Shown here piece after piece: positions 21,437 to 29,019 of a stretch of DNA of 41,748 nucleotides. Source of the stretch: Bdellovibrionales bacterium RIFOXYD12_FULL_39_22. GTDB lineage: Bacteria; Bdellovibrionota; Bacteriovoracia; Bacteriovoracales; Bacteriovoracaceae. Numbering within the stretch: the stretch's first letter is position 1; each line of letters starts with the position of its first letter. The stretch lies in NCBI GenBank assembly GCA_001770205.1, contig MEQL01000040.1:62001-103748 (forward strand). The letters run 5' to 3'. Under the pieces are notes generated by a model that was given only the letters and a program-made list of their open reading frames with translations, was not told the DNA's origin and searched no databases. The translations under genes were made by a program, and so were the position numbers.

Positions 21437-22552
21437 CTACTTCATTTCTTTTCCATCCATCCCAACTAATGTTTTAATTAGGCCATTCCAGAGATTGATA
21501 GAGTAACGTTTGATTTTATGATCAAAAATTTTATCTCTAGTTCTGGCATCTGCATTTTGTAAAGACTCTTTAATTTTATTAATATCCTTTTGCGTAAGTC
21601 GGCGCATATTCGCTACATCTTGGGCATCAATTCCATTTTCCTCGCGAAGAAGTTCATCATGAATTGTCCCTAATTCATCAATGTATTTAACTTGACCTAT
21701 GTGGATGTAACTCATTTGCGCCAGTATCTGATTGATTGTGGCGCTACCACTTCGCTCATAATTTTTTGCCATAGTATATGGAACAGTAGTGACGATATCC
21801 AAATGATTAACCAATCGATAGTGAGCAACATTAAAGGCCAACTGAAAGGGAATATTTGCCACCCGAGGAGAGCCAAAGGTGTAGAGGGCCACAACATTAG
21901 CACCGGCCTTCTCTAAACGGTCGGCGGCCAATGTGGCCAGTGCAGCTCCGAGACTGTGTCCAGTAATCCAAAGTGGCCTATTTGTTCTATCTTTTTTTGC
22001 AAAATATTCTGCAATTTTATCCCACACTTTATTTAATACTCGTTGAAATCCGTGATGTACTTTTCCTGCGCCATATTCATTGCTGGCCAAGGCAACTCCT
22101 AAATCAGCAATCCAATCTAAAACTGCCTGTGTTTGTTTGCCTTCCGTGCCGCGAAAAACTAAGATTGTTCCATGATCATTACTGAGTATATATACTTGTG
22201 TGCTCTCTTCTGAAAAAAAATCAACTTCGGAAAAACCAGCGGCCGCAAAGTAGCTGGCCGCTTCGTTGTTAGGAAGATAACTAATACCGGAGAGTTCGCT
22301 TAACCACCAAGCATTTTTTAAATTAAACTCCCGAGTATCGTAGTCAAAGGGGATTTTTTCAGCATTTTCTAAGTATTTGTAGTTTTCAAGAGAGAGCATC
22401 TCTTCTCCCTTAACTTCGCTATAACTTTTAGATGTCAATTCGAAAGTAGAATTGGGAGTTCGATTGATTTGAGGAAGAGCGCAGGATGACAGTGCCAATA
22501 TCCATGCCAAAATTAAAACTGCACTCTTTTTTAATCTAAGCATATTTTGCAT
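21437..22552 (-). CDS. Class 3 lipase, probable lipoprotein
   Basis: Lipobox LALSSC; VFRGT, VHHGF, TGHSLGA, TFGSPR. Start at 22552 chosen from the GAGG RBS; the ORF track gives 22606. Confidence 0.88.
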   Translation of the reverse strand: MQNMLRLKKSAVLILAWILALSSCALPQINRTPNSTFELTSKSYSEVKGEEMLSLENYKYLENAEKIPFDYDTREFNLKNAWWLSELSGISYLPNNEAASYFAAAGFSEVDFFSEESTQVYILSNDHGTILVFRGTEGKQTQAVLDWIADLGVALASNEYGAGKVHHGFQRVLNKVWDKIAEYFAKKDRTNRPLWITGHSLGAALATLAADRLEKAGANVVALYTFGSPRVANIPFQLAFNVAHYRLVNHLDIVTTVPYTMAKNYERSGSATINQILAQMSYIHIGQVKYIDELGTIHDELLREENGIDAQDVANMRRLTQKDINKIKESLQNADARTRDKIFDHKIKRYSINLWNGLIKTLVGMDGKEMK

Positions 22553-22674
22553 AATGTGCCTCACTGGTTTAACTAGTGAGTAGCAAAAAAGAGGCCGGCC
22601 GGTCATCGATAACTGGGCGTATTTTGGTTTAGGCCAGAGAAGAAAATGTATAGAAAAAAATATATGTCAAAACT

Positions 22675-23481
22675 TTAGTAAGGGTTTTTTAAGTACTCTT
22701 GTACCGAGGCAACAAGCCGTTTGATACCAACGCCATCAATTACTCGATGGTCAATGGTGGAAGAAAAAGGGATCATTGGCCTTACCACAGGGGCCCCATT
22801 TTCCGCTACTACTTGATCGCCTATTTTTCCAACGGCAATCACCATGGGACAGCGAGAGTATGGAACTAGTGGAGCATAGGCCCGTTCCAGCCCCAGTGAG
22901 CCGATAGAGGTTACCATGGCGCTTCCAAAACCATCACGAGGAGCACCGATAAGCGGTGACCAGAAGTTTAGATTGTATAGGATAAAGGCCAAAGTATCGA
23001 GCAGTGGCCCTACAAACCATCCAGGTAGTAACTCCATAATACCTTTAGATTTGCTATATTCTTTTTCCTCTCCAGTACGAATTTCTACCACTTTTTTTCG
23101 CACCTCTTCCGCAATTTCATCAAGTGGCCGTTTATGGCAGTTGCGAATGACTAATCCGGAGAGATCCTCCCCATCATCATCAGTGGCAACCTGTAAAAAA
23201 ATATCTACATTTTTGCGTCTATATACCCGTCCAAAGCGCTGCAGTACATTGGCGGAGGGAACCTTGTCTAGCGCTACGGCGATGGCCTTGGCAGCAATAA
23301 TAGTGGGGGTAATTTTAATGTTGCGCAGGCGGTGTTCTTCGATTACTCGTAAACACGGCCTGGCATCAAAATACATCTCACCATAGACGGAAGGATCTCC
23401 CAATTTTCGCCAAGTTCCGACCGCCACTTTTCGCCAGGGACTGTTTTTTTTGTATGGCAACAATTCAACATTATGAAACAT
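22675..23481 (-). CDS. Stand-alone 2-oxoacid dehydrogenase E2-type acyltransferase catalytic domain
   Basis: TSIGSLG, IAVGKI, TIDHRVIDG; no lipoyl domain. Confidence 0.88.
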   Translation of the reverse strand: MFHNVELLPYKKNSPWRKVAVGTWRKLGDPSVYGEMYFDARPCLRVIEEHRLRNIKITPTIIAAKAIAVALDKVPSANVLQRFGRVYRRKNVDIFLQVATDDDGEDLSGLVIRNCHKRPLDEIAEEVRKKVVEIRTGEEKEYSKSKGIMELLPGWFVGPLLDTLAFILYNLNFWSPLIGAPRDGFGSAMVTSIGSLGLERAYAPLVPYSRCPMVIAVGKIGDQVVAENGAPVVRPMIPFSSTIDHRVIDGVGIKRLVASVQEYLKNPY

Positions 23482-23511
23482 TCTTATTCATCCTTTGATC
23501 GCTTGTCGTAA

Positions 23512-24075
23512 TTATTTACAGTAATTTTCTTCCCAGAAGTAGCGATCGCATATGAAGGTGCTATTTATACAATCCATGTTATTGCTTGAGTTATAAACTC
23601 TGAATCGGCACTGACGAGACTCTTCCTGATTGATGGATACCACAAAATCACCTTCGGCCATCAATACATTATTTTTTAGCAATCGATAGTGGATATTATT
23701 GTTGCCTGCATCGAGTAATGGACGTTGTAACAGAGTCCAGACCCACAGATTAAACGAGGAAGAGCTTTCCTTGTGTAGTCGATTAAAGGCCGAACTTTTT
23801 TTAACGATTTTTCCATTTTCCCAGGTAGCAATAAGTTCTACTTTGTCAGCGTCAATATCTGCATCGTAATAAAATTTCGACCAATTACCCCCAGAAAGCA
23901 TGTTAGCGGCACATCGCTGGAAGCTTGTTTCATAAGCATCATATTCAAAGCAATGAATTAGAATTTCACCGCGAAGATGGGCCACTGTCAGATTATTGCC
24001 GGAGCGAAAACCGGCCAGTTCATTGGCAAAAAGAGTGTCTATAATAAGAAAGGCCATAATTGAAAAAAATTTCAT
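23512..24075 (-). CDS. Secreted Cys-containing hypothetical protein
   Basis: Signal-peptide-like N-terminus; GGAGG RBS; several Cys. Confidence 0.75.
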   Translation of the reverse strand: MKFFSIMAFLIIDTLFANELAGFRSGNNLTVAHLRGEILIHCFEYDAYETSFQRCAANMLSGGNWSKFYYDADIDADKVELIATWENGKIVKKSSAFNRLHKESSSSFNLWVWTLLQRPLLDAGNNNIHYRLLKNNVLMAEGDFVVSINQEESRQCRFRVYNSSNNMDCINSTFICDRYFWEENYCK

Positions 24076-24162: not shown

Positions 24163-24552
24163 TTATGGACGATTTTTTAGGTCATTTATAATTTGTGTGA
24201 CACATTCTTCAAGGTCGTACGGTTTATAAAAAACCCGAACGACTCCGCGACGCCAAAGGCCCTCCATTTCCGGATCATAGGAGCCTGTTGTGGCGTAAAA
24301 ACTTATTCCCTGGGCCTTTGTCATTTCAAAAAGTTCTATTCCATTTACAGATGGCATACATACATCTGAAAATATTGCATCAATTTTATTATTAAAGACT
24401 ATATCGAGTGCTTGTAAGGAAGAAGTTGCGGTGTATACGCGAAGTCCTTCGCGAGTAAAAAAATAGTCACAAATGGCAAGTAAATCCTCCTCGTCATCGA
24501 CAATTAAAATGGAGTAAGGGGAGTGCTCTTTTTTTTCATCTTGTGAATTCAT
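24163..24552 (-). CDS. Single-domain response regulator (receiver)
   Basis: ILIVDDE, SDVCMP, TTG, YKP. Confidence 0.9.
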   Translation of the reverse strand: MNSQDEKKEHSPYSILIVDDEEDLLAICDYFFTREGLRVYTATSSLQALDIVFNNKIDAIFSDVCMPSVNGIELFEMTKAQGISFYATTGSYDPEMEGLWRRGVVRVFYKPYDLEECVTQIINDLKNRP

Positions 24553-24733
24553 TGTTGGCCCATATTGTTTCCATATGGAATATTATTGGCAATATTTAGA
24601 GGAAGTAAAGGAAGATAAATATTCCATATAAACTTAAGCACCTGAGCTAATATGCTGATAATACATGCTATTTATAATATATTGAGAAAAGTTTATCGAC
24701 TAACAGATCTGTTCTTATGTTATTTTAAAGTAC

Positions 24734-25687
24734 GTGTTATTATTCTTGTCGCATAAGTTATTGGCAAACAAGGATGAAGAGTTGTTTTCACCAAATAATG
24801 AACCAGAGATCCACAAAAATGTTAAAAATTTTCTAGCACGCCTACAATTTGGATTAAATTTGTCTGACAATGAATTGGCAGATTATATGGGGTACCGCCT
24901 CGTTGATTTTGAACAACATGTGCGAAAAACATTTGATATTTCCATAAATCATCTCGCAAGATTGGCAGAAAGTTTTAATGTTGGAGTGGAAAATATTATC
25001 CAAGGAACAGCTGATGTTTCGCAATTAATAAAGAGGTTCCAGGGAGATGTCTATTGCTTACCAGAGCGTTATCAAATTTTTAGTAAAAGTAAGATGGAAG
25101 TGGCCAGATATACCTTGGGATTTATCGAGGATAGTTTTGGAGTTGATACCAAGCAAATGGTTATGCGCCAACTACAGCTTTCGGATCAACTGATTTTTTC
25201 AGATTGCCACGAAATTAATTTATTACTGGCAGTTGATATTTGTGAACGGATTGCGAAATTACCGCATGGCCAAGAGATGTTGATGCAGATGGGACGCAAC
25301 TTTCATGAACGCAATAAAGAGCAACAGTGGGCCAACGCAGTTAGAGAAATTGAAAAATATGGTGAATTATACTCTTTTTTTAGTGAAGTAGTTGTTCCCA
25401 ACTATGTAGAGAAAAATTTTAAATGGCAGGTGCAAAAAGTCGAAAATGGCTCCTTGATTATAACCGGAACTCCGGAGGTCGAATTATTGGAGATGCTTGG
25501 AAAAGAAAATGTGTGCAAAAAATCAATGGCCCATTTACGTGCCGGTTTTTTATCCTCTGTCGCACAATTTGCCGGCCAAGATCCATTATGGGCAGAGCTT
25601 TTATATTCCACCGCTGATGGATATGACTGCGAGGCCTATAGAATCCATTTTAGTGGCGACGTAAAGTTTAGAAAAAACATCATGTAA
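24734..25687 (+). CDS. XRE-like HTH protein with a C-terminal V4R/H-NOX-like putative ligand-binding domain
   Basis: LNLSDNELADYMG...ISINHLARLAESFNVGVENI HTH; LPERY linker; ends ELLYSTADGYDCEAYRIHF. Start may be TTG at 24782 (AAGGA upstream). Confidence 0.7.
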   Translation: MLLFLSHKLLANKDEELFSPNNEPEIHKNVKNFLARLQFGLNLSDNELADYMGYRLVDFEQHVRKTFDISINHLARLAESFNVGVENIIQGTADVSQLIKRFQGDVYCLPERYQIFSKSKMEVARYTLGFIEDSFGVDTKQMVMRQLQLSDQLIFSDCHEINLLLAVDICERIAKLPHGQEMLMQMGRNFHERNKEQQWANAVREIEKYGELYSFFSEVVVPNYVEKNFKWQVQKVENGSLIITGTPEVELLEMLGKENVCKKSMAHLRAGFLSSVAQFAGQDPLWAELLYSTADGYDCEAYRIHFSGDVKFRKNIM

Positions 25688-25705
25688 TGGCCGGCCACTA
25701 TATTC

Positions 25706-26482
25706 TTATGCTGCCCGCTGTTCTTTTTGTTTTATGATTTCTCGATTTTCTATGATGTAGCGATCTTCCCAAAGATGGAGATATTTACTTGCATGTTTTA
25801 GGCCTTCTTGCGAAAAGTGTTGCTGGTGCATTATGTAAAATTCTCCTCCATGTAAGGCATAGCTGTTAATGGTGGGAAGTTGTCGGCCATGGCGGGAGAG
25901 ATATTCCCAACCCAACTCTTTTTTGCGTAGATCAATTTTATATTTTGCCGCACAGGTCGCAATGACATGTCCAATATTATTTGACTTATATTGGTGCACA
26001 ATCATCGTTACGATAATATCCCAGAAAATTGCCATATTCTCCTTAGTGCGCAAATGGGGTTGTATTGTAAAGGAGCCATTGTAGCCTAGATTTGTTCCTC
26101 CATCCTCTTGACGGTGAAATTCTACAATCTCTGCAACGGCCTGCAAATGATCTGGAGAACAATTTTCACCACTAATCATACCAAAGATGGGGAAATTTAT
26201 TCGATGAAAATCACATTTGGCCAGCGTGACGGACTTCATTCCCATGATAGGTTCAAAAAAACCATTCTCTTCAATACAGAGCAAAATATGGTCTGCTACA
26301 AAATCAGAGGCATCAAAGGGAAGCACCCCAAGTGGATATTCTTTAGTGTATCCTGCAATTTTTAGAGACATTACTTTGGGAAATAAGCTACGAGCTAAGT
26401 GTGATTGCGTTGATTCTGTTAGTAATAGATCGTACATGGACTTAATAACCACAATTTTAAATTTTCTCTGGTCAATGGCCAT
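25706..26482 (-). CDS. Divergent GNAT-fold acyltransferase, LuxI/FeeM-like (putative signal synthase)
   Basis: Motif spacing LKIAGY / FDASDFVADHILL / IMGMKSV / GSFTIQPHLR / IGHVIATC / ELGWE mirrors LuxI/FeeM-type synthases; AAGGAG RBS. Confidence 0.55.
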   Translation of the reverse strand: MAIDQRKFKIVVIKSMYDLLLTESTQSHLARSLFPKVMSLKIAGYTKEYPLGVLPFDASDFVADHILLCIEENGFFEPIMGMKSVTLAKCDFHRINFPIFGMISGENCSPDHLQAVAEIVEFHRQEDGGTNLGYNGSFTIQPHLRTKENMAIFWDIIVTMIVHQYKSNNIGHVIATCAAKYKIDLRKKELGWEYLSRHGRQLPTINSYALHGGEFYIMHQQHFSQEGLKHASKYLHLWEDRYIIENREIIKQKEQRAA

Positions 26483-26523
26483 AAAATATCACTCCTTTCA
26501 ATTAATATTGATATTATTAGTTC

Positions 26524-26550
26524 TGTTCGGAATTAAATTTTATGGCATTA
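26524..26550 (-). promoter_or_regulatory. Sigma-28-like promoter facing the acyltransferase gene
   Basis: Minus strand reads TAAT-N15-TCCGAACA. Confidence 0.4.
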
Positions 26551-26558
26551 GAAAAAAT

Positions 26559-26585
26559 TAATGAGGGATGGAATTTTGCCGATAG
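26559..26585 (+). promoter_or_regulatory. Sigma-28-like promoter facing the methyltransferase gene
   Basis: TAAT-N15-GCCGATAG, near consensus. Confidence 0.55.
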
Positions 26586-26611
26586 GCCCATCATTAACAA
26601 AAGGGGGGCAG

Positions 26612-27409
26612 ATGGGATATTTATTAGAGAGTAATGATGAAGCAAAAAGGTTAGAATTTCAGGCCAAACAGAGAAGTTATCTATTAGAAGGTGAAATGCA
26701 AATTCTTAGCAAACTTCCCTTGGCCGCCAATGCCAGCGTTTTAGATGCTGGATGTGGCACTGGATTAGTTTCTCGTTTTATAAAGAAGGTGCGGCCAGAT
26801 TTATTCCTAGAGGCCTGTGACTTTGCAGATATACGACTCAAACAGGGTGATATTTTTGCTCGAGCAGAAGGTATTTCAGATATCTCTTTTTTTAAGGCCA
26901 ATTTAGAACAGATTGAGCGTGCGGATGCTTCGTATGATTTAATAGTTTCGCGTTATGTTTTTGAACATTTATTAAATCCACAGGCAGTGGCCCATGAACT
27001 TTTTCGTCTGGCCCGACCTGGGGGATCTATTTGTTTAATAGATTTTGATGGTATTTTCGCAAATTTTTATACTCCCAATAAAGAAGTAATGAAAATGTTA
27101 AATAAAATTATGTCGGTATTGGAATTTGATCTTTTTATTGGAAGAAAGTTACCAACACTTTTACATTGCGCAGGTTTTTCCAACATTGAATGGGAGGTCT
27201 CTACTTCATATTTTAAAGGTGATGAGCTAAAAGAAGAGTATGAAAATTGTAAAGAACGACTTTCCTTTGCTCGACCTAAAATTGTGCAGGCACTAGGAAG
27301 TGATGGTGCTGCCGATCAATTTACAAAGTTATATCTGGAGGAAATGCAGCGGCCACACACTACACTATTTTATAATAAATTTATTACTCAAGGATATAAG
27401 AAGTTTTGA
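26612..27409 (+). CDS. Class I SAM-dependent methyltransferase
   Basis: VLDAGCGTG, YDLIVSRYVFEHL, RPGG, IGRKLP. Start ATG 26612 after AAGGGGGG; the ORF track gives 26561. Confidence 0.92.
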   Translation: MGYLLESNDEAKRLEFQAKQRSYLLEGEMQILSKLPLAANASVLDAGCGTGLVSRFIKKVRPDLFLEACDFADIRLKQGDIFARAEGISDISFFKANLEQIERADASYDLIVSRYVFEHLLNPQAVAHELFRLARPGGSICLIDFDGIFANFYTPNKEVMKMLNKIMSVLEFDLFIGRKLPTLLHCAGFSNIEWEVSTSYFKGDELKEEYENCKERLSFARPKIVQALGSDGAADQFTKLYLEEMQRPHTTLFYNKFITQGYKKF

Positions 27410-28158
27410 AGAGTATGAATAAAGTGATCTGACTCTTCTAGTGAGGGAAAGTGGGCACTGTTGGCAAAGATGACTGATTTATAATTGGAAGCTATTTTTT
27501 TGATGAGATTATTTTGATGGTGAAAGTTAACCACTTCATCGTGAGCACCATATATGGCCATAGTCGGAGTATTAATATTGGAAGGTAATTGTACGTTTAG
27601 CGTTTGGCGAACTCCAATAAAAGAAGTGACATCAAATTGCCATTGAGGGGATGAGCTGTTTATGGACCAATATTGCTCCATGGCCAATTTATTGGCCCAA
27701 TAATGGCGTTCTAAATGTGGATAGTCTGCTACTTGCAAAAAAGCATCCAAGTTAAAAAAATCGCTGCGGGCATTCTTTAAAAAATCAGAGTTTTTAATAT
27801 TTGCTACAAGAGAAAAAATCATCTTATCTACATGAAAAATATCTATGGCCGGAGCGATTAAGATTAGTTTTTTTATCGAGGAAGATAGCTCTTGGCATAA
27901 AGATAGTGCCGCAATGGCGGCAAATGAATGTGCGATGAGAATGGTGTTTTTATGGGTGATGCTGTTTTTGGCAGAATCAAACCACGCTTCGTAGGGAGAG
28001 AGTGAGCTATGTTTGTATCCACGGTTTACGGAGGGTTCATGCCAAAAGAAAATGTTGGACTGATCAAGGTTTAAGGCCGAAGAAATTTTATTCTTCAAAA
28101 GTTGTTCTTCCGCATTAGAGTTTCTGCCGGGGCCACCGTGTAGATAGACAATATTCAC
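27388..28158 (-). CDS. Alpha/beta hydrolase
   Basis: HGGPG, AHSFA (Ser), GAHDEVV (Asp), SAHFP (His); GTG start abuts the upstream stop. Confidence 0.9.
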   Translation of the reverse strand: MNIVYLHGGPGRNSNAEEQLLKNKISSALNLDQSNIFFWHEPSVNRGYKHSSLSPYEAWFDSAKNSITHKNTILIAHSFAAIAALSLCQELSSSIKKLILIAPAIDIFHVDKMIFSLVANIKNSDFLKNARSDFFNLDAFLQVADYPHLERHYWANKLAMEQYWSINSSSPQWQFDVTSFIGVRQTLNVQLPSNINTPTMAIYGAHDEVVNFHHQNNLIKKIASNYKSVIFANSAHFPSLEESDHFIHTLQNFLYP

Positions 28159-29019
28159 TTAGCACTGTACCTCAATTGTGCGTCGTGAGTTTTCTTGGGC
28201 AGACTCATTAATGGCCGCAGAAGATTTGTCAACGATGAAACTATTTAAATAATCTTTGGAGAGGTATGATAGAAAAACGTCTTCGTTGTCAGAAAAGTTT
28301 TTCTTAAATTCCGCTAGATGGCCTTCGGGGGTAAGCGAGAAAACCAACTTGTTTTTGGATTCATCCAGGATCTCATAAGAAAAATTGGATTCATATTTTT
28401 TAGCGTTACGGACTAAGCGTTTTATCAAAGAGATTGGATCGTTATCAGAAAAAAGTTTTTTGGCAAAATTACCATGTATTGATTCTTGTTTTACTAAGGC
28501 GAAAATATTATTGGTATCCACCGAAGCTTCGGTGGCGGACTTTTTTATTTTCTGTAAAAAATCAGTGAGAAAGTTGATATTAAGTTGATTGTCATAATTA
28601 CAAAAATAATCAGGGTCAATGCCCATCTCGGTAACTGTCTTTTCAAAACCATCATTTCCCATTAAATTTTTGGCAAAAAATATAAGAGTATTAAGGCCTC
28701 TTATTTTCATGGAGCGTAGATAGGAATAGCGCTGAGGAATTTCAATGCCAGAACTGATTCGGCCACTTTCAACTTGAGAGAAGGTCATGTCGTCTAGATA
28801 GCCATTAATCACCGAATCCATATTTACACCGGTTAATTGGCAAAACTCCGCCCAAAATACCACCGAAGGAACATTGATTCCGTTTTCAATTTTAGACAGA
28901 TACGATTGAGATATACGTAAGTTTGAGCAGACTTCCTTTTGAGTTAGTCCGGATAATTTACGAGCGCAACGAACCATACGTGCGACTTTGGGGGCAGATT
29001 CTGCTTCTGAAGGATTCAT
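28159..29019 (-). CDS. XRE-family HTH regulator with a C-terminal V4R/H-NOX-like domain (paralogue of 24734..25687)
   Basis: ARKLSGLTQKEVCSNLRISQSYLSKIENG is a canonical XRE HTH; IPQRY linker; YESNFSYEI matches YVEKNFKWQV in the paralogue. Confidence 0.85.
   Translation of the reverse strand: MNPSEAESAPKVARMVRCARKLSGLTQKEVCSNLRISQSYLSKIENGINVPSVVFWAEFCQLTGVNMDSVINGYLDDMTFSQVESGRISSGIEIPQRYSYLRSMKIRGLNTLIFFAKNLMGNDGFEKTVTEMGIDPDYFCNYDNQLNINFLTDFLQKIKKSATEASVDTNNIFALVKQESIHGNFAKKLFSDNDPISLIKRLVRNAKKYESNFSYEILDESKNKLVFSLTPEGHLAEFKKNFSDNEDVFLSYLSKDYLNSFIVDKSSAAINESAQENSRRTIEVQC

Follow-up and report, generated by a model that had tools for sequence, protein, structure and literature searches.

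The locus described here raises the question of whether a single small gene cluster can make, modify and perceive its own signal molecule with no LuxR-type receptor. The cluster occupies positions 24734 to 29019 of a 41,748-nucleotide stretch (hereafter the window) of contig MEQL01000040.1 from Bdellovibrionales bacterium RIFOXYD12_FULL_39_22 (assembly GCA_001770205.1) and comprises, in order, genes for a helix-turn-helix (HTH) regulator (HTH-1), a putative acyltransferase (hereafter the synthase), a methyltransferase dependent on S-adenosylmethionine (SAM), an alpha/beta hydrolase and a second regulator (HTH-2). An earlier interpretation of the same DNA, made from the letters and the open reading frames (ORFs) without database searches (the sequence-only reading), had proposed a circuit in which an acylated signal is made, methylated, sensed and destroyed. 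The analysis presented below leaves the chances about evenly divided that the cassette is a self-contained acyl-amide signal synthase/receptor module of the Bdellovibrionota, which follows the logic of LuxI/LuxR without a LuxR-type receptor. We infer that its product would be a diffusible signal sensed by HTH-1 and HTH-2.

Fold and family of the synthase

A structural model of the synthase was predicted with AlphaFold2 (AF2); the input alignment combined the window protein and 104 sequences taken from the 151 non-self representatives listed for its family, 3 partial sequences and most of those ranked below 100 being omitted. The model has a predicted local distance difference test (pLDDT) score of 96.4 and a predicted template modelling score (pTM) of 0.92. 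In a Foldseek search of the PDB, ranks 1-8 were all taken by synthases of acyl-homoserine lactones (AHLs), namely MesI, BjaI, LasI, EsaI and RpaI (E-values 1.8e-6 to 1.3e-5), and FeeM was found at rank 26. On realignment, the highest score was obtained with BjaI (Z 16.8, root mean square deviation (rmsd) 2.7, 191 residues aligned), followed among the AHL synthases by RpaI (16.4), LasI (15.8), MesI (15.0) and TofI (14.8); FeeM (2g0b) gave Z 16.2 with an rmsd of 2.8 over 176 of 184 residues. An acyl-CoA N-acyltransferase of P. aeruginosa (1xeb) scored 15.2 with 146 residues aligned, and ordinary GNATs 14.3 or lower with about 140-150. The ESM Atlas model of the synthase has a template modelling (TM) score of 0.76 to an N-acyltyrosine-synthase cluster, the N-acyltyrosine-synthase/FeeM neighbours ranging from 0.59 to 0.76, and Bdellovibrionota is given there as the commonest phylum. 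The suggestion of the sequence-only reading that the gene at 25706..26482 is GNAT-like is thus upheld by structure prediction, Foldseek and realignment, which place it in the LuxI/FeeM branch of the fold.

Sequence comparisons gave a different picture. The synthase belongs to no Pfam or NCBIfam family, the single Pfam entry returned being DUF1248 at E 0.042, below the cut-off. At E <=0.01, none of 105 members of the synthase family was matched by Pfam, the models Autoind_synth (PF00765), FeeM (PF21926) and Acetyltransf_5 (PF13444) included; Autoind_synth gave no match to the window synthase at E <=0.1, and PF21926 matched nothing anywhere in the window's genome. A profile search of the PDB with the synthase returned nothing relevant (a lone unrelated match at E 0.91). 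For TraI of pTiC58, the probability calculated by hhalign was 0.9%. A word-indexed search for homologues yielded just 3 proteins; the synthase family comprises 515 representative clusters at E <=0.001 and 374 at <=1e-10. Judged from its predicted structure, the synthase is a GNAT-fold enzyme of the LuxI/FeeM branch, yet by sequence a member of neither family.

The position of the fold also agrees with a second explanation, the main rival, according to which the cassette makes, under regulation, an N-acyl lipid with a bioactive or structural function (an antibiotic, a surfactant or a membrane aminolipid, made for example during predation) and the regulators are pathway switches that respond to a precursor, to a fatty acid or to some outside cue, not to a secreted autoinducer. 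Antibiotics and aminolipids are among the products of FeeM-type and OlsB-type enzymes, and methylation of aminolipids is known. The synthase fold is tied between the AHL synthases and FeeM (Z 16.8 versus 16.2), and its Atlas neighbours are N-acyltyrosine-synthase/FeeM clusters. We nevertheless regard biosynthesis of an N-acyl lipid as less likely than signalling in view of the gene linkage described in the following section.

Within the family, Asp60 is invariant and Lys41, Gly44, Tyr45, Pro55 and His65 are nearly so. The protein has an additional C-terminal helical region with a conserved Trp, a conserved Arg and a terminal -Ala-Ala; the C-terminus lies at 25706-25711 of the window. The -Ala-Ala ending is shared by 75 of 105 synthase representatives and by the synthases of 55 of the 80 related loci considered below; among neighbouring proteins it is found in 5 of 183. 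A similar C-terminal determinant is borne by ssrA-type substrates of ClpXP. By analogy, the tail resembles a degron and suggests controlled turnover of the synthase by ClpXP-type proteolysis.

Occurrence and gene linkage in Bdellovibrionota

The synthase was detected in 80 of 401 sampled Bdellovibrionota genomes, with up to three copies each, including 39 of 100 genomes of the window's family and 23 of 57 of another family (f14). Outside the window's genome there were 83 matches; gene neighbourhoods of 7 kb on each side were collected for all of them but the weakest and two fragments at contig ends, and the ORFs called in the resulting 80 loci were clustered. The counts given across genomes are not independent owing to kinship. 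A further candidate locus (L111) had a weak match (36% identity, 70 aa) and none of the cassette profiles matched it; it was dropped.

A member of the regulator family lies within 5 kb of the synthase in 72 of the 80 loci and at least two copies in 58; by locus, no copy is found in 8, one in 14, two in 37, three in 20 and four in 1. In 53 of the 80 a regulator is convergent with, and abuts, the 3' end of the synthase gene. The regulator nearest the synthase is of the HTH-1 type in 45 of 47 labelled loci, with an HTH-2-type gene usually preceding it in tandem. The methyltransferase orthogroup stands next to the synthase in 41 loci, and a ThiF-family gene takes its divergent position in 25, the window's cassette being without ThiF. 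Apart from these genes, the hydrolases and generic response regulators (33 loci), every further gene family is confined to at most 9 of the 80.

Co-occurrence at the level of genomes gave a similar result. The window's genome (94.6% complete) contains two full-length regulators and one synthase, all inside the cassette; 13 further ORFs match the regulator profile over short stretches, nearly all in the HTH part. At E <=1e-12 the regulator family is present in 136 of the 401 genomes, the weakest of these matches being probably HTH-only, and 78 of the 80 synthase-positive genomes are also regulator-positive. Methyltransferase matches fall into a strong and a weak group, divided by a cut at 1e-60 that was chosen after the matches had been seen; strong matches occur in 51 genomes, 48 of which carry the synthase. 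The three exceptions are all regulator-positive, and in two of them the locus is fragmentary (at a contig start; directly beside a regulator gene).

The arrangement of the cassette is not a matter of chance, because it recurs in other genomes. Recurrence had been predicted for the whole block; synthase, regulators and methyltransferase are indeed linked across the phylum, but the five-gene block is not conserved. The conserved unit consists of the synthase, one or two regulators and either a methyltransferase or a ThiF-like enzyme, not of all five genes.

These patterns bear on the biosynthesis of an N-acyl lipid. Regulator solos without a synthase do occur and the cassette encodes no exporter, both of which agree with it. 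Two dedicated ligand-binding regulators per synthase, however, suit a signalling circuit better, as do the convergent pairing of synthase and regulator (53/80) and an operator-like site in the synthase promoter. The presence of up to three cassettes in a genome likewise fits signalling better than lipid housekeeping, and the neighbourhood shows neither a conserved second acyltransferase nor any further conserved gene for lipid assembly.

Genomes with several cassettes (G251, G162 and G377) have two or three copies of the synthase, and every copy is accompanied by regulators of its own (as in L066, L087 and L097, all from G251), and the synthase tree intermixes the taxonomic families f1, f14 and f21. 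Old paralogy or transfer within the phylum is suggested by these two features. In addition, an HD_5-domain protein of 438-502 aa recurs near the cassette in 7 of the 80 loci (e.g. L062, L098, L099 and L109), and at a synthase-less locus (L118) it follows a tandem regulator pair and a hydrolase (E 6e-161). This protein may be an output or a signal-turnover component.

Predicted ligand-binding regulators

HTH-2 carries a canonical XRE HTH (PF01381/PF13560) at residues 14-68 (HTH_31, E 9.7e-11; HTH_3, 1.3e-9), and HTH-1 has no Pfam match. HTH-1 was modelled from an alignment containing 66 of the 67 HTH-1-labelled and 49 of the 55 HTH-2-labelled neighbouring ORFs, fragments and over-long ORFs being omitted. 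The AF2 model (pLDDT 91.9) divides into a degenerate XRE HTH at residues ~22-93 and a heme-less ligand domain of H-NOX/V4R fold at ~119-313. Residues 119-313 match complete H-NOX domains with Z 15.0 (rmsd 2.8 A over 170 of 182 residues; model residues 119-307), and an exhaustive structure search gave Z 14.8 for H-NOX. The same fold is found in the ligand domains of the regulators VirS (Z 12.0), CdpR (8.3), PoxR (8.1) and DmpR (7.4), in the V4R protein MJ1460 (8.4) and in the palmitate-binding Bet3 (10.3-11.0), and residues 21-93 match XRE repressors with Z 5.6-7.7. Across the regulator family, 51 of 117 members match HTH_3 and 21 match Pfam V4R (PF02830; best E 2.8e-8), neither window regulator being among the latter. 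Thus, the description of both proteins as XRE-V4R-like, made earlier from the sequence, agrees with the HTH matches, with the predicted fold and with the V4R matches of the relatives.

In every column of the regulator alignment, His is limited to 29 or fewer of the 117 members, and the helix at 209-225 of HTH-1, where the proximal His of H-NOX would be expected, is without His. Heme ligation is therefore unlikely, and the regulators are not considered to be heme-based H-NOX sensors. A set of three Cys residues occurs in 35 of 67 HTH-1-type and 12 of 50 HTH-2-type proteins (47 of 117 in total); both window regulators are without it.

The sensor domain raises another alternative, namely that the regulators sense an exogenous hydrophobic molecule (a prey signal, an amine or an aromatic) which the enzymes modify or inactivate. 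XylR, DmpR and PoxR detect aromatic pollutants through their V4R domains, and alpha/beta hydrolases and GNATs commonly detoxify. VirS, which shares the sensor fold, binds xenobiotic ligands according to the titles of its structure entries, and regulator solos are common. However, the synthase is nearer to the long-chain acyl-ACP/CoA synthases of signals and lipids (ACP, acyl carrier protein; CoA, coenzyme A) than to acetyltransferases of small molecules (176-195 versus ~140-150 residues aligned), the alternation of methyltransferase and ThiF suggests the maturation of a biosynthetic product, and no transporter or catabolic genes are conserved nearby. A role in the handling of foreign compounds is thus improbable.

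A complex of HTH-1 with HTH-2 was predicted with a score of 0.85, the best of three controls scoring 0.00; this level is reached by 116 of 157 solved complexes and, among 215 mismatched pairs, by 2. Agreement between runs is at least 63% of contacts, the partner pLDDT is at least 77, and the interface is mainly HTH-to-HTH. As a model, this supports dimerisation among members of the regulator family. A heterodimer is not specifically indicated, because HTH-1 and HTH-2 are paralogous and XRE dimers have already been solved.

Putative tailoring enzymes

The methyltransferase matches Methyltransf_23, Methyltransf_25, Methyltransf_31 and Methyltransf_11 of Pfam at E 1e-14 to 1e-16 (1e-12 to 1e-16 when Methyltransf_12 is included), and its D-x-G-C-G-x-G motif and a downstream Asp are kept in at least 38 of 42 members. 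By these sequence features it is a class I SAM enzyme, in agreement with its earlier description as a methyltransferase. With the hidden Markov model (HMM) of its orthogroup, the cassette gene scores 296.5 bits, as against 69.8 for the next best in the window's genome. The hydrolase matches Abhydrolase_1 (E 4.8e-12) and has the intact Ser-Asp-His triad expected of its fold (Ser78-Asp207-His236, present in 17 of 17 aligned members); the corresponding orthogroup HMM scores are 160.4 and 46.1 bits.

The alternative partner was identified as ThiF by Pfam in 4 of 4 and by NCBIfam ThiF-family models in 5 of 5 tested members. Its best NCBIfam match, PRK08223, is named 'hypothetical protein' and lies below the cut-off, and its nearest solved relative is TcdA (E 1.1e-12), the similarity being limited to residues 17-165. 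TcdA, the tRNA threonylcarbamoyladenosine dehydratase, activates the carboxylate of N-acylated threonine, which it dehydrates and cyclises. Across the 80 loci, 40 have the methyltransferase only, 24 ThiF only, 1 both and 15 neither. When 81 synthases were placed on a quick maximum-likelihood tree, the labels for methyltransferase and for ThiF clustered, and the methyltransferase label changed 16 times compared with a shuffled mean of 27.4 (0 of 500 shuffles as low). Judged from well-supported branches, the methyltransferase must have switched at least 6 times and ThiF at least 4 times, and the labels swap repeatedly among close synthase relatives. Two enzymes able to act on a carboxylate thus alternate beside the same synthase family, and this is the main reason why an N-acyl amino-acid intermediate with a capped carboxylate is favoured here.

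The joint presence of a methyltransferase and a hydrolase recalls BioC and BioH, and such a pair would, as in the making of biotin, mask and then unmask a malonyl-thioester to give an unusual dicarboxylic acyl chain. Among NCBIfam models, the methyltransferase does score best with BioC (55.9 bits), and BioH is one of the best matches of the hydrolase (31.9 bits); the respective cut-offs, 184.95 and 206.95, are far higher. The BioC model matches 18 methyltransferases in the window's genome, none above the cut-off, 27 of the 41 methyltransferase loci are without a hydrolase, and ThiF stands in the place of the methyltransferase in 24 loci. This reading is very improbable and was rejected on account of the low scores, the generic nature of the BioC matches and the usual absence of the hydrolase.

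Operator-like palindrome

Enumeration of dyads in 81 regions upstream of the synthase found ATTCC-N4-GGAAT in 8 and TATTC-N6-GAATA in 7, whereas 30 shuffles never gave more than 4. The motif ATTCCA-N2-TGGAAT (with up to 2 mismatches) occurs between -60 and +300 of the synthase start in 17 of the 80 loci, compared with a mean of 3.8 loci in shuffles (standard deviation 1.9, maximum 12) and 4 of 76 AT-rich control stretches. When 7 kb on each side were divided into bins of 250 bp, 19 occurrences fell in the first bin upstream of the synthase and at most 6 in any other. In the window, the motif is represented once, by TTTCCATATGGAAT (24568-24581), with one mismatch, which sits between the HTH-1 start and the start of a response-regulator gene (24552, minus strand; 16 bp away). 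Taken as a site by itself, the 12-bp palindrome shows no enrichment across the window (2 matches versus 3.4 expected), and the gap between the synthase and methyltransferase genes (26483..26611) has no match at up to 2 mismatches.

Organisation of the locus

The coordinates of the cassette are collected in Table 1; the five genes and their strands proposed by the sequence-only reading agree with the ORF listing.

Table 1. Features of the cassette (positions in the window)
Feature	Position	Strand	Length	Remarks
Operator-like palindrome TTTCCATATGGAAT	24568..24581	.		Perfect 12-bp palindromic core 24569-24580
HTH-1	24734..25687	+	317 aa	ORF listing; regulator nearest the synthase
Putative signal synthase (LuxI/FeeM-fold acyltransferase)	25706..26482	-	258 aa	Predicted fold; no Pfam/NCBIfam model
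Synthase/methyltransferase divergent intergenic region	26483..26611	.		Span if the methyltransferase starts at 26612
Class I SAM-dependent methyltransferase	26561..27409	+	282 aa	Likely true start ATG 26612
Alpha/beta-fold serine hydrolase	27388..28158	-	256 aa	GTG start 28158; Abhydrolase_1 match
HTH-2	28159..29019	-	286 aa	Canonical XRE HTH and C-terminal sensor domain of the HTH-1 kind

The genes for HTH-1 and the synthase are convergent, with stops 18 bp apart. Those for the synthase and the methyltransferase are divergent with 78 bp between them, or 129 bp with the methyltransferase starting at Met18 (26612), which corresponds to the start in 17 of 41 homologues, most of the others starting within 3 residues of it. 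The methyltransferase and hydrolase genes converge with a 22-bp overlap of their ends, and the HTH-2 stop (28159) directly adjoins the GTG start of the hydrolase (28158), as noticed earlier; the two genes are probably co-transcribed. For HTH-1, the start is uncertain. The mechanical ORF begins at GTG 24734, and TTG 24746 and TTG 24761 are further candidates; residue 9 corresponds to the start of 103 of 117 relatives, residues 1-12 of the model have pLDDT below 50, and TTG 24761 is a candidate start.

The divergent orientation of the two enzyme genes, stated in the sequence-only reading, is thus correct, but the promoter region that they were said to share finds no counterpart in the promoter search: 18 sigma-70-like matches were found in the region versus 17.4 in shuffles, and the terminator scan was likewise at the level of chance. 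The claimed paralogy of the outer genes is borne out by a BLASTP match (E 0.003, 18% identity across 200 aa) and by nearly full-length matches of both proteins to the regulator family profile (HTH-1, 1.7e-67; HTH-2, 4.6e-64 over positions 1-265 of 290). On this sequence similarity, HTH-1 and HTH-2 are distant paralogues. The GC content of the cassette genes (0.35-0.40) is the same as that of their surroundings.

Divergent to HTH-1 lies a gene for a single-domain response regulator (24163-24552, minus strand; 129 aa; Response_reg 8.5e-16). Response-regulator genes flank the synthase in 33 of the 80 loci; a link to the cassette is unproven because the family is generic. Further upstream, the stretch 21437-24075 (minus strand) encodes a class 3 lipase (389 aa), a stand-alone catalytic domain of a 2-oxoacid-dehydrogenase-type acyltransferase (268 aa) and a protein of 187 aa with no Pfam match. 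The last has no homologue in the 80 related loci, and the stretch is therefore probably outside the system.

Proposed mechanism and its assessment

On the favoured reading of the cassette as a signal synthase/receptor module, the synthase would, in keeping with its predicted fold, move an acyl chain from acyl-ACP or acyl-CoA onto an amine to give an N-acyl amide, and the acceptor could be an amino acid or a SAM-derived moiety. A dedicated modifying enzyme would then cap the product, the SAM methyltransferase in the window and a ThiF/TcdA-like adenylating or cyclising enzyme elsewhere. The most coherent target of capping would be a free carboxylate, which would become a neutral ester or a cyclised product. 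Both regulators may hold the product in a hydrophobic pocket of their heme-less H-NOX/V4R domain. They would dimerise by contacts between the HTH domains and recognise ATTCCA-N2-TGGAAT palindromes, such as those that are located in the synthase promoter in many genomes and upstream of HTH-1 in the window. Where present, the serine hydrolase may limit the level of the signal, and the ssrA-like -Ala-Ala tail may limit that of the synthase.

A more ambitious form of this proposal can be put forward only tentatively, its chances falling somewhat short of even. In it, the predatory Bdellovibrionota would share a phylum-wide quorum-sensing-like language without a LuxR-type receptor, based on an N-acyl amide made by a hitherto unrecognised branch of the LuxI/FeeM fold, capped at its carboxylate by methylation or by adenylation and cyclisation of the ThiF type, and read on ATTCCA-N2-TGGAAT by pairs of XRE-H-NOX/V4R paralogues, which would represent a new class of receptor. 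Solo regulators would eavesdrop and the -AA tail would time the turnover of the synthase.

Several observations weigh against the cassette being a signalling module. The ties of the synthase to LuxI and FeeM are structural only, the sequence searches (Pfam, PDB profile and hhalign) having been negative, and FeeM-type products were first known as antibiotics, not signals. The nearest solved relatives of the methyltransferase, one uncharacterised enzyme and phosphoethanolamine N-methyltransferases, give no clue to its substrate or to O- versus N-methylation. The complex prediction is blind to the difference between heterodimer and homodimer, and may echo the solved XRE dimers. The enrichment of the palindrome is somewhat optimistic, since one set of regions served both to find the motif and to test it, and in the window it is found upstream of HTH-1 and the response regulator, with none upstream of the synthase.

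The regulators also occur on their own. The family is present in 58 genomes in which the single-protein query detected no synthase. Fifteen regulator loci from synthase-negative genomes (L112-L126), picked for strong matches and not randomly, were examined; 14 of them have no synthase nearby and several lie beside housekeeping genes. At L122 a divergent synthase was found by profile, together with ThiF and a hydrolase. The neighbours of the solo regulators include flgE, 5'-nucleotidase, aspartyl-tRNA synthetase, an MFS transporter and a LysE-type translocator, and tandem regulator pairs are seen too; two solo loci adjoin a hydrolase, one of them also an HD-domain protein. In one genus (g2), the regulator is present in 6 of 6 genomes and the synthase in 1 of 6. 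With regulators found away from the synthase, the family may therefore sense other ligands.

The weakest element of the original proposal is the hydrolase as destroyer of the signal. Alpha/beta hydrolases (two clusters) lie within 5 kb of the synthase in just 24 of the 80 loci and are no commoner with the methyltransferase (14 of 41 loci) than with ThiF (11 of 25). This rarity and the lack of a tie to the methyltransferase make a role in destroying a methyl ester doubtful.

Significance

The sequence-only reading had not recognised the gene combination as a described system, and in the open-access literature no description of the cassette, or of a cell-to-cell signalling system of Bdellovibrionota itself, was found; nor was the V4R domain found there linked to quorum sensing or to acyltransferases. 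If the favoured reading is true, it would open the question of group behaviour in obligate predators and add a synthase family (515 representative clusters) that is invisible to Pfam and NCBIfam. The H-NOX/V4R fold would then serve as the receptor for an acylated ligand in a one-component regulator, and synthetic biology would gain a compact signalling pair of two or three genes that has no sequence relationship with LuxR systems. A natural experiment on the diversification of signal chemistry is offered by the loci in which methyltransferase and ThiF alternate.

Comparison with known systems

The LuxI/LuxR systems are the closest in logic. The fold of the synthase best matches BjaI, RpaI, LasI, EsaI, TofI and MesI (Z 14.8-16.8), its gene is paired, often convergently, with that of a dedicated ligand-binding transcription factor, and some genomes carry several systems and others receptor solos that resemble LuxR solos. 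However, the cassette synthases are outside Autoind_synth by sequence (0 of 105), the receptors combine an XRE HTH with an H-NOX/V4R domain in place of the LuxR-type autoinducer-binding domain, and a methyltransferase or ThiF step is added. The LuxR-type domain (PF03472) was not detected at E <=0.01 in the window's genome (94.6% complete), the E. coli control being positive.

The N-acyl amino acid synthases of the FeeM type (2g0b; PF21926/PF13444) share the fold (Z 16.2). A FeeM-like product would have a free carboxylate, and a methyltransferase or ThiF partner would therefore make sense. The cassette synthase differs in having no Pfam match, an additional C-terminal helical region and dedicated regulators.

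Among regulators with the V4R/H-NOX fold (XylR, DmpR and PoxR; VirS and CdpR of the AraC type), the same small-molecule sensor is fused to a DNA-binding output, which in the cassette is an N-terminal XRE HTH. The heme H-NOX sensors (PF07700) also share the fold of the cassette regulators, which are without the conserved heme-ligating His.

With respect to the product, the methyl-ester signal made by PhcB of Ralstonia has a histidine kinase as its sensor. Roseovarius makes N-acyl alanine methyl esters (NAMEs), which are reported to be structural analogues of AHLs and to take no part in AHL signalling (PMC11580390). Both the PhcB signal and the NAMEs are precedents for methyl-esterified AHL-like acyl compounds. 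For the 24 loci in which ThiF replaces the methyltransferase, the nearest solved relative of the partner is TcdA.

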